DNA of 64,000 bases from Escherichia coli (GTDB lineage: Bacteria; Pseudomonadota; Gammaproteobacteria; Enterobacterales; Enterobacteriaceae): NCBI RefSeq assembly GCF_048403405.1, contig NZ_CP183129.1, one strand, 5' to 3'. The position numbers were made by a program, and so were the translations under genes. The notes under the pieces were generated by a model. It was not told the DNA's origin, made no database searches, and saw only the letters and a list, made by a program, of their open reading frames with translations. This document shows positions 22,989 through 64,000 of the stretch, one piece after another; within the stretch, counting starts at the first letter, position 1, and each line of letters opens with the position of its first letter.

Positions 22989-23432
22989 ATGGTTATTAGT
23001 ATTCGCCGCTCACGGCATGAGGAAGGGGAGGAACTGGTTGAGATTTGGTGCCGTTCTGTCGATGCCACTCACGATTTTTTATCAGCAGAGTATCGGGCCG
23101 AGCTGGAAGAGCTGGTGCGTTCCTTCCTGCCGGAAGCGCCGTTGTGGGTCGCGGTTAATGAGCGGGATCGGCCGGTTGGGTTTATGTTGTTAAGTGGGCA
23201 GCATATGGATGCGCTGTTTATCGATCCTGATGTGCGCGGCTGCGGCGTGGGTCGGATGCTGGTGAAGCATGCGCTCTCAATGGCCCCGGAACTGACAACC
23301 AATGTTAATGAGCAAAATGAGCAGGCGGTTGGGTTCTATAAGAAGGTGGGTTTTAAGGTTACGGGACGCTCTGAGGTGGACGATTTGGGGAAACCGTATC
23401 CATTGCTGAATCTGGCGTATGTGGGGGAATAA
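22989..23432 (+). CDS. yjaB: GNAT-family N-acetyltransferase
   Basis: 147 aa with acetyl-CoA-binding motif (RGCGVGRMLVKHAL). Confidence 0.85.
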   Translation: MVISIRRSRHEEGEELVEIWCRSVDATHDFLSAEYRAELEELVRSFLPEAPLWVAVNERDRPVGFMLLSGQHMDALFIDPDVRGCGVGRMLVKHALSMAPELTTNVNEQNEQAVGFYKKVGFKVTGRSEVDDLGKPYPLLNLAYVGE

Positions 23433-23504
23433 GCTGCCCCTGCCGTGCCTGCCCAGGCTGGAGAAGACGCGCCAGCGTCGCACCCGGCATTTTTTTCACC
23501 AACG

Positions 23505-23535
23505 CAAAAAGGCCATCCTGACGGATGGCCTTTCG
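23505..23535 (-). terminator. rRNA operon terminator downstream of 5S
   Basis: Minus-strand hairpin GGCCATCCGTCAGGATGGCC followed by TTTTTGCGTT. Confidence 0.7.
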
Positions 23536-23544
23536 CTTAATTTG

Positions 23545-23664
23545 ATGCCTGGCAGTTCCCTACTCTCGCATGGGGAGACCCCACACTACCATCGGCGCTA
23601 CGGCGTTTCACTTCTGAGTTCGGCATGGGGTCAGGTGGGACCACCGCGCTAAGGCCGCCAGGCA
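23545..23664 (-). rRNA. rrf: 5S ribosomal RNA
   Basis: 120 nt; reverse complement of ATGCCTGGCAGTTCCCTACTCTCGCATGGGGAGACCCCACACTACCATCGGCGCTACGGCG... matches E. coli 5S. Confidence 0.95.
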
Positions 23665-23758
23665 AATTCTGTTTTATTAACCCGCTTGTCGCCGGTTAAT
23701 TTAATCTGTATCAGGCTGAAAATCTTCTCTCAATCCGCCAAAACAGCTTCGGCGTTGT

Positions 23759-26662
<2,904 letters not shown>

Positions 26663-26855
26663 TCACAACCCGAAGATGTTTCTTTCGATCCATCATCGTG
26701 TTGCGAAAATTTGAGAGACTCACGAACAACTTTCGTTGTTCAGTGTTTCAATTTTCAGCTTGATCCAGATTTTTAAAGAGCAAATATCTCAAACATCACC
26801 CGAAGATGAGTTTTGAGATATTAAGGTCGGCGACTTTCACTCACAAACCAGCAAG

Positions 26856-26931
26856 TGGCGTCCCCTAGGGGATTCGAACCCCTGTTACCGCCGTGAAAGG
26901 GCGGTGTCCTGGGCCTCTAGACGAAGGGGAC
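26856..26931 (-). tRNA. gltV: tRNA-Glu (UUC) in the 16S-23S spacer
   Basis: 76-nt match to E. coli tRNA-Glu (GTCCCCTTCGTCTAGAGGCCCAGGACACCGCCCTTTCACGGCGGTAACAGGGGTTCGAATCCCCTAGGGGACGCCA) as reverse complement. Confidence 0.95.
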
Positions 26932-27015
26932 GTATCAGTCTGCTTCGCAAGACGCCTTGCTTTTCACTTTCTATCAGACAATCTGTGTGAGCACTGCAAA
27001 GCACAGTTCTTTAAG

Positions 27016-28558
<1,543 letters not shown>

Positions 28559-40559: not shown

Positions 40560-40745
40560 CGTTTGTGGGGCTAATTTCTTGTCGGAGTGCCTTAACTGGC
40601 TGAGACCGTTTATTCGGGATCCGCGGAACCTGATCAGGCTAATACCTGCGAAGGGAACAAGAGTTAATCTGCTATCGCATCGCCTTTGCGGCGATCGTCT
40701 CTTGCTTCATCCGTCGTCTGACAAGCCACGTCCTTAACTTTTTGG
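40560..40745 (+). promoter_or_regulatory. TPP riboswitch (thi-box) leader of the thiCEFSGH operon
   Basis: Aptamer at 40578-40661 contains the thi-box core CTGAGA...ACCTGATCAGGCTAATACCTGCGAAGGGAACAAG; expression platform runs to the thiC RBS. Confidence 0.85.
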
Positions 40746-54932: not shown

Positions 54933-54968
54933 AGCGCAAAAAGGCTGGTGACTAAAAAGTCACCAGCC
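54933..54968 (-). terminator. rplL-rpoB intergenic transcriptional attenuator
   Basis: Minus-strand hairpin GGCTGGTGACTTTTTAGTCACCAGCC followed by TTTTTGCGC, about 40 bp downstream of the rplL stop. Confidence 0.7.
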
Positions 54969-55007
54969 ATCAGCCTGATTTCTCAGGCTGCAACCGGAAG
55001 GGTTGGC

Positions 55008-60103: not shown

Positions 60104-60179
60104 TGGTGCTGATAGGCAGATTCGAACTGCCGACCTCACCCTTACCAAGGGTGCGCTCTACCAACTGAGCTATATCAGC
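60104..60179 (-). tRNA. thrT: tRNA-Thr (GGU)
   Basis: Reverse complement is GCTGATATAGCTCAGTTGGTAGAGCGCACCCTTGGTAAGGGTGAGGTCGGCAGTTCGAATCTGCCTATCAGCACCA. Confidence 0.95.
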
Positions 60180-60185
60180 ACATCT

Positions 60186-60260
<75 letters not shown>

Positions 60261-60376
60261 ATCCTGGAACTCGGCTACCTGATTTTCATTCTGCACTGAA
60301 TATCGAGAGAAGCTCTCTTTATTCGAGCCGGTAAGCGAACTTATCGTCTCGGGCTACGCCATCGCGTGGCCGAAAT

Positions 60377-60461
<85 letters not shown>

Positions 60462-60469
60462 GGACTTGA

Positions 60470-60545
<76 letters not shown>

Positions 60546-63876: not shown

Positions 63877-63960
63877 AGCTGCTTTCCTGATGCAAAAACG
63901 AGGCTAGTTTACCGTATCTGTGGGAGGATGGCTTGTAGTTATGACGACAGGGAGTGTTTG

Positions 63961-64000
63961 TAGAAACGCAAAAAGGCCCAGTCTTCCGACTGGGCCTTCT
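63961..64000 (-). terminator. Terminator at the 3' end of an upstream rRNA operon (rrnB-type)
   Basis: Minus-strand hairpin GGCCCAGTCGGAAGACTGGGCC followed by TTTTTGCGTTTCTAC at the window edge; the operon itself lies beyond the window. Confidence 0.6.

Follow-up and report, generated by a model that had tools for sequence, protein, structure and literature searches.

Genomic context of the murB-proximal hairpin

The window analysed here, a 64,000-nt stretch of an Escherichia coli chromosome, contains an rRNA operon (16S, tRNA-Glu, 23S, 5S), the tRNA cluster thrU-tyrU-glyT-thrT and, at its right end, the genes murB, birA and coaA. Taken together, these landmarks identify it as the E. coli chromosome segment extending from rrnB to rrnE, in reversed orientation with respect to K-12. 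The operon within the window is rrnE, and rrnB would begin just past the right edge. A TPP riboswitch, a match to the StyR-44 family within the 23S leader of rrnE and a match to the P26 sRNA family were also recorded (Table 1).

The last 1.2 kb of the window, including the hairpin that is the subject of this study, is 100% identical to six independent complete genomes, one of which (strain TUM14771) provided the sequence beyond the window edge. Everything cut off by this edge lies upstream of the hairpin, which is intact, as is its tail. The original prediction drew attention to the difference between this hairpin and the terminator that follows the 5S gene within the window, and both of the hairpin sequences quoted in it are present on the minus strand.

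Table 1. Positions of the features discussed in the text (coordinates of the 64,000-nt window)
Feature	Position	Strand	Basis
Region past the rrnE 5S gene, lacking yjaA	~22991-23546
Homology past the rrnE terminator, running into a REP-like palindrome	~23455-23500	-
rrnE terminator GGCCATCC-GTCA-GGATGGCC + TTTTTGCG	23503..23530	-	T2-type frame
rrnE terminator as quoted originally, GGCCATCCGTCAGGATGGCCTTTTTGCG (hairpin GGCCATCCGTCAGGATGGCC), 17 nt past the rrnE 5S gene	23530..23503	-
rRNA operon rrnE (16S, tRNA-Glu, 23S, 5S)	23547-28558	-	Rfam + ARAGORN
StyR-44 match	26670-26778		Rfam
TPP riboswitch	40573-40673		Rfam
P26 sRNA family match	54942-55003		Rfam
tRNA cluster thrU-tyrU-glyT-thrT	60104-60545		Rfam + ARAGORN
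murB start codon	63875..63877	-	Sequence + annotation of identical strain TUM14771
murB leader, terminator to murB ATG	63878..63959	-
murB-leader block ATACGGTAAACTA	63917-63905	-
U-tract + tail TTTTTGCGTTTCTAC, same as K-12 rrnB T2 tail	63960..63974	-
Terminator hairpin GGCCCAGTC-GGAA-GACTGGGCC	63975..63996	-	Sequence + fold
Hairpin + tail as quoted originally, GGCCCAGTCGGAAGACTGGGCC-TTTTTGCGTTTCTAC (GGCCCAGTCGGAAGACTGGGCCTTTTTGCGTTTCTAC, 37 nt), just upstream of murB	63996..63960	-
AGAA, final 4 nt of the A-rich left flank TTAAGCAGAA	63997..64000	-
End of the window, AGAAGGCCCAGTCGGAAGACTGGGCCTTTTTGCGTTTCTAC	64000-63960	-

The hairpin of TUM14771, which shares its strand with rrnB and murB, starts approximately 15 nt past the rrnB 5S gene, and the distance from the terminator to the murB start is ~80-100 nt. 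The murB gene begins 136 bp from the annotated 5S end, compared with a gap of 300 bp in K-12, which accommodates T1, a spacer and T2. An alignment revealed that ~164-170 bp of the K-12 sequence, comprising the tail of T1, the left half of T2 and the spacer between them, in which 18 nt of the 5S 3' end are repeated, have no counterpart here. In the lineage of the window, rrnB carries one terminator and no T1-T2 pair; what the extended sequence shows is a single terminator, and not the canonical T1 of the standard tandem.

Within the murB leader, a block of 13 nt (Table 1) preceded ~17-20 nt upstream by CAAGCC is retained in nearly all of 65 Enterobacteriaceae loci from 60+ species (see below), and probably represents the murB promoter region; a scan of the leader with the sigma-70 consensus gave no match.

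Structure of the hairpin

The stem of the hairpin consists of 9 bp without a mismatch, 7 of them G-C, and is capped by a GGAA loop of the GNRA type; UUUUU follows, with the U-rich stretch UUUUUGCGUUU directly abutting the 3' side of the stem. The A-rich left flank, of which TUM14771 reads GCATCAAATTAAGCAGAAGGCCC at this site (the remaining part lying, together with the rrnB 5S gene, beyond the window edge), is able to pair with the U-tract, and the predicted fold lengthens the stem into this flank. The 37-nt segment occurs once in the window, against an expectation of 0 from 100 shuffles.

When folded with its flanks, the hairpin has a predicted energy of -26.8 kcal/mol (z = -6.3), a value that was equalled by 0 of 200 shuffled sequences. 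Folding in the same way gave -22.7 kcal/mol for K-12 T2 and -32.7 kcal/mol for K-12 T1. Among 16 related hairpins of the CAGTC type, 99.3% of the stem cells were paired. Both-sided (compensatory) changes were seen in 3 of the 9 pairs of this small sample of related sequences, a value reached by 4 of 500 shuffles. Four features typical of an intrinsic terminator are seen: a GC-rich stem-loop, an adjoining U-tract, a location at the 3' end of rrnB on the transcribed strand, and a conserved structure. A simple promoter/terminator scan of the identical strain called no terminator here; this negative result carries no weight, since the same scan also missed the proven T2 of K-12. In our reading, the miss is probably due to pairing between the A-rich flank and the U-tract, which leaves too few T residues after the stem.

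Relationship to the K-12 terminators

We compared the hairpin with the 3' ends of all seven rrn operons of K-12. The T1-spacer-T2 module is present in rrnA, rrnB and rrnD, with the T1T2 pair of rrnB being used in many expression vectors, while rrnG has a single T2-type terminator and rrnE ends in an unrelated hairpin followed by yjaA.

The window hairpin occupies the same place relative to murB as K-12 rrnB T2, and shares with it the GGCC/GGCC frame that closes the stem. Identity with T2 extends to the left flank (ATCAAATTAAGCAGAAGGCC), to the right frame with the tail (GGCCTTTTTGCGTTTCTACAAAC) and, on both sides, to the flanks AUCAAAUUAAGCAGAAGGCC ... GGCCUUUUUGCGUUUCUAC adjoining murB. The two hairpins differ in their cores (CAGUCGGAAGACUG in the window, AUCCUGACGGAU in K-12 rrnB T2): the 14-nt core CAGTCGGAAGACTG forms the 9-bp stem with a GGAA loop, whereas the 12-nt core ATCCTGACGGAT of T2 forms an 8-bp stem with a UGAC loop, and the former hairpin is predicted to be more stable by ~4 kcal/mol. 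Moreover, the window hairpin follows a real 5S gene, whereas K-12 T2 is preceded by an 18-nt remnant of a 5S end.

With respect to its core and its location directly after the 5S gene, the hairpin resembles T1. Its 14-nt core is identical to that of T1 from K-12 rrnA and rrnD, and differs at one loop base from that of rrnB T1 (G in the window, A in T1). Comparison with the complete rrnB T1 hairpin GGCUCAGUCGAAAGACUGGGCC revealed 20/22 identical positions, with a stem U replaced by C and a loop A by G in the window; the T1 stem contains GGCU and the window stem GGCC, and the latter is consequently free of the G-U wobble. The flanks are clearly distinct: in T1, AAAACGAAA and UUUCGUUUUAU extend the stem to ~20 bp, while in the window their places are taken by UUAAGCAGAA and UUUUUGCGUUU. 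In K-12, T1 is followed by a spacer of ~130 nt containing the 5S-end remnant and then by T2, whereas in the window murB is reached after ~100 nt.

The T1 core and the T2 tail meet exactly at GGCCTTT, a sequence common to both K-12 hairpins. The suggestion that the element is a T1/T2 hybrid can therefore be upheld as a fair description of its sequence relative to K-12, a mosaic of T2 flank and tail with a T1 core, and not as a description of the locus, where a T1/T2 tandem is absent and one terminator occupies the 136-bp gap.

With regard to the K-12 module itself, the last 18 nt of the spacer between T1 and T2 (AACTGCCAGGCATCAAAT) duplicate the 3' end of 5S, and another spacer segment, GGATTTGAACG, is similar to a tRNA T-arm in reverse complement. 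A second 5S/tRNA unit, such as that still present in rrnD, may have left this module as its remnant.

Frequency of the allele in E. coli

Searches of 5426 complete E. coli genomes with a 40-nt query (core, T2 tail and murB leader) identified the short allele in 2304 of them (~42%), at one place in each. The K-12 arrangement of spacer, T2 and murB was found in 2521 of the 5426 genomes (~46%). A 60-nt junction was detected in 2963 genomes, at up to 3 places in each; this higher number reflects the fact that the same hairpin terminates other operons, e.g. rrnE of E. coli HS. A third allele, in which the 5S gene is followed directly by a K-12-type T2 with the ATCCTGACGGAT core, was confirmed in strain C122, and its frequency is estimated at ~10% from 4 of 40 evenly spaced rows of the search for the K-12 arrangement, which is not a count. 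The textbook rrnB T1-T2 tandem is thus the K-12-type allele and not the norm of the species, and the window terminator looks hybrid only against this laboratory strain. A literature search found no account of natural variation in rrnB terminators.

The short allele was found in O157:H7, JJ2434, D8, BH100N and a turkey isolate, each with its own SNPs and with a 5S-murB gap of 136 bp (135 bp in JJ2434). The distinct SNPs in such scattered strains indicate that the allele is old within E. coli. Early-branching lineages presumably carry it, on the basis of the phylogroups to which we take the named strains to belong and not of a tree.

The T1-spacer segment is missing from 1451 of the 5426 genomes (27%). 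Where found, it is present in 1 to 10 copies per genome, and 68 of its places are on plasmids, presumably derived from cloning vectors.

Terminators at murB in other species and genera

A degenerate pattern of the murB N-terminus retrieved 65 loci from representative genomes, whose upstream sequences were compared. This outgroup set is without E. fergusonii and most Salmonella and Citrobacter, for which the murB pattern was unmatched. In most of the Enterobacteriaceae sampled, one terminator with the GGCC frame and the ATCCnnnnGGAT core is located right after the 5S gene. The arrangement at murB in Enterobacter, Kosakonia, Klebsiella and others is the same as in K-12 rrnG and in rrnE of the window: one GGCC-frame hairpin ~15 nt past the 5S gene, followed by TTTTTGCG. 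These single terminators mostly have the ATCCnnnnGGAT core with variable loops, and the CAGTC core represents a minority outside E. coli.

The CAGTC core in the GGCC frame was nevertheless identified at murB in E. whittamii, Kosakonia oryzendophytica and Phytobacter massiliensis, and a doubly compensated variant, CGGTCGAAAGACCG, is present at the 5S-murB junction of E. albertii. In E. whittamii, as in Escherichia sp. E1V33 and 'E. coli E69', the 5S gene is directly followed by one terminator, which in the latter two has an ATCC core. The long T1-spacer-T2 form was found at murB in Kluyvera genomosp. 3, a contig of Salmonella diarizonae carries a spacer remnant followed by T2, and Enterobacter sp. 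BIGb0383 has a lone T1.

In Kosakonia oryzendophytica (L051, 108-145 nt upstream of murB) the flank, hairpin and tail are identical to those of the window at 36/36 positions, while the surrounding murB leader has diverged. This identity could result from strong constraint, convergence or transfer.

Predicted function

In view of how it is built and of its homology to T1 and T2 of K-12, whose established behaviour reportedly goes back to the original work of Brosius et al. in 1981 and Orosz et al. in 1991, the hairpin very probably acts as the single Rho-independent terminator ending rrnB in this E. coli lineage, and represents one of three common alleles. The nascent RNA would fold into the 9-bp GC-rich stem with its GGAA tetraloop, and the UUUUU that comes next would permit the release of RNA polymerase, so that murB-birA would be shielded from the very heavy transcription of the rrn operon. 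By analogy with the T1 hairpin in the 9S precursor of K-12, it is also probable that the 5S precursor trimmed by RNase E has this hairpin as its 3' structural end. The allele is an ordinary, old and widespread member of an already known family of intrinsic terminators. It has little import for biology at large, but is useful for annotation and for the interpretation of oddities found near rrn operons in comparisons with a reference genome, as well as for studies on the insulation of murB-birA from rrn transcription, or on 5S 3'-end processing, in strains other than K-12.

Origin of the allele

Terminators of the T1 and T2 types have the frame GGC(C/T)...GGCC in common. Given this common frame and the concerted evolution of rrn 3' ends, a T1-like core placed between T2-like flanks is a normal, old member of the family and not a recent hybrid. 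In K-12, the 209 nt past the 5S gene contain a single difference between rrnA and rrnB, and homology stops right after the TTTTTGC of T2, a pattern as expected from recent gene conversion; this near-identity indicates that the whole module lies within the unit homogenised by gene conversion among rrn operons. We infer that, in the older state at rrnB in Escherichia, the 5S gene was most likely followed by a single terminator, and that the K-12 tandem was most likely copied into rrnB later, from another operon, by gene conversion. The single terminator is favoured as the older form because Escherichia other than E. coli have single terminators at this locus. The direction of change could also be the opposite, with the long form as an old polymorphism and the short alleles as deletions, in view of the tandem of Kluyvera genomosp. 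3 and the spacer remnant and T2 of Salmonella diarizonae.

A specific version of the latter scenario, which we consider rather unlikely, supposes that a K-12-like ancestor with T1-spacer-T2 gave rise to the short allele in two steps. In the first, the T1 hairpin would have been joined to the T2 tail by a deletion between the GGCCTTT copies that follow each hairpin; in the second, gene conversion from another operon, over a tract that took in the 5S gene and stopped within the 5' side of the stem, would have exchanged the T1 left flank for one of the T2 type. The exact coincidence of the joint between T1 core and T2 tail with the shared GGCCTTT is in agreement with this proposal, as are the long form and the spacer remnant in the two outgroup genomes named above and the persistence of one T1-spacer copy elsewhere in the identical strain TUM14771. 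The T1-type GGCT retained in the stem of turkey isolate 64.1 and of E. whittamii would fit a variable end of the conversion tract, but these C-to-T differences in the stem are equally explicable as point mutations. Furthermore, the proposal requires two events, and a single terminator is found in every informative Escherichia other than E. coli and in most other Enterobacteriaceae sampled.

It is also conceivable, although we find this doubtful, that the rrn terminator nearest the 5S gene has as its inner core an exchangeable cassette, set in a fixed GGCC...GGCC frame. Identical frames at this locus repeatedly contain one or the other of two discrete core families, CAGTCGRAAGACTG and ATCCnnnnGGAT, in E. 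coli as well as in different genera, and inversions of the loop are present (TGAC vs GTCA). If such exchange took place, a specific mutational mechanism would be possible, e.g. template switching between neighbouring quasi-palindromic terminators, and the alleles might not be alike in how often transcription reads through into murB-birA or in how the 5S 3' end is processed.

The original prediction that the hairpin could reflect recombination between terminator copies or rrn operons stands only as far as a distant origin is concerned: an exchange of this kind is plausible, and would be ancient if it happened. As a recent, strain-specific event, recombination between T1 and T2 or between operons is highly improbable. 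Compared with K-12 the sequence is mosaic, and sequence exchange among rrn operons is known, but the 60-nt junction is identical or nearly identical in thousands of genomes from distant lineages with their own SNPs, and the hairpin is found in rrnE of HS as well as in other species and genera; the frequency of the allele and its occurrence outside E. coli refute such an event. An error of sequencing or assembly through collapse of the T1-spacer-T2 module, which many genomes contain in several copies and which might in principle be affected, has a negligible chance of being the cause and is refuted for practical purposes by the six independent complete genomes that are 100% identical over 1.2 kb spanning the hairpin and by the 2304 closed genomes with the allele, besides which a collapse would yield T1 or T2 and not a new combination of core and flanks, and rrnA and rrnE of the strain likewise have single terminators.

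Terminators of other rrn operons in the strain

The single terminators of rrnA and rrnE in the strain analysed have the core ATCCGTCAGGAT. In TUM14771 there is exactly one copy of the T1-spacer segment, located outside rrnA, rrnB and rrnE and possibly in rrnD. Reverse complementation of the K-12 T2 hairpin (GGCCATCC-TGAC-GGATGGCC) gives exactly the rrnE hairpin, with the loop inverted and the stem unchanged, and the same flipped hairpin with the GTCA loop is also present at the end of rrnA in TUM14771 (L080:9689-9708). Loop variants observed at the hairpin position across the Enterobacteriaceae include GAAA, GGAA, GCAA, GTAA, TCAC, TGAC and GTCA.

Past the T2-type terminators of rrnE in the window, of rrnA and rrnG in K-12 (L003, L004) and of rrnA in TUM14771 (L080:9715-9760), the homology runs into a REP-like palindrome (GCCGGATGCGACGCTGGCGCGTCTTATCC), whereas that between rrnB and the other rrn operons stops right after TTTTTGC. 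These differing ends of homology indicate that the homogenised unit has different 3' limits in individual operons.

The gene yjaA is absent: directly past the rrnE 5S gene come yjaB, which lies on the opposite strand, and next metA. The presence or absence of yjaA is one of the PCR markers of the Clermont phylogroup scheme, and the strain analysed types as yjaA-negative.
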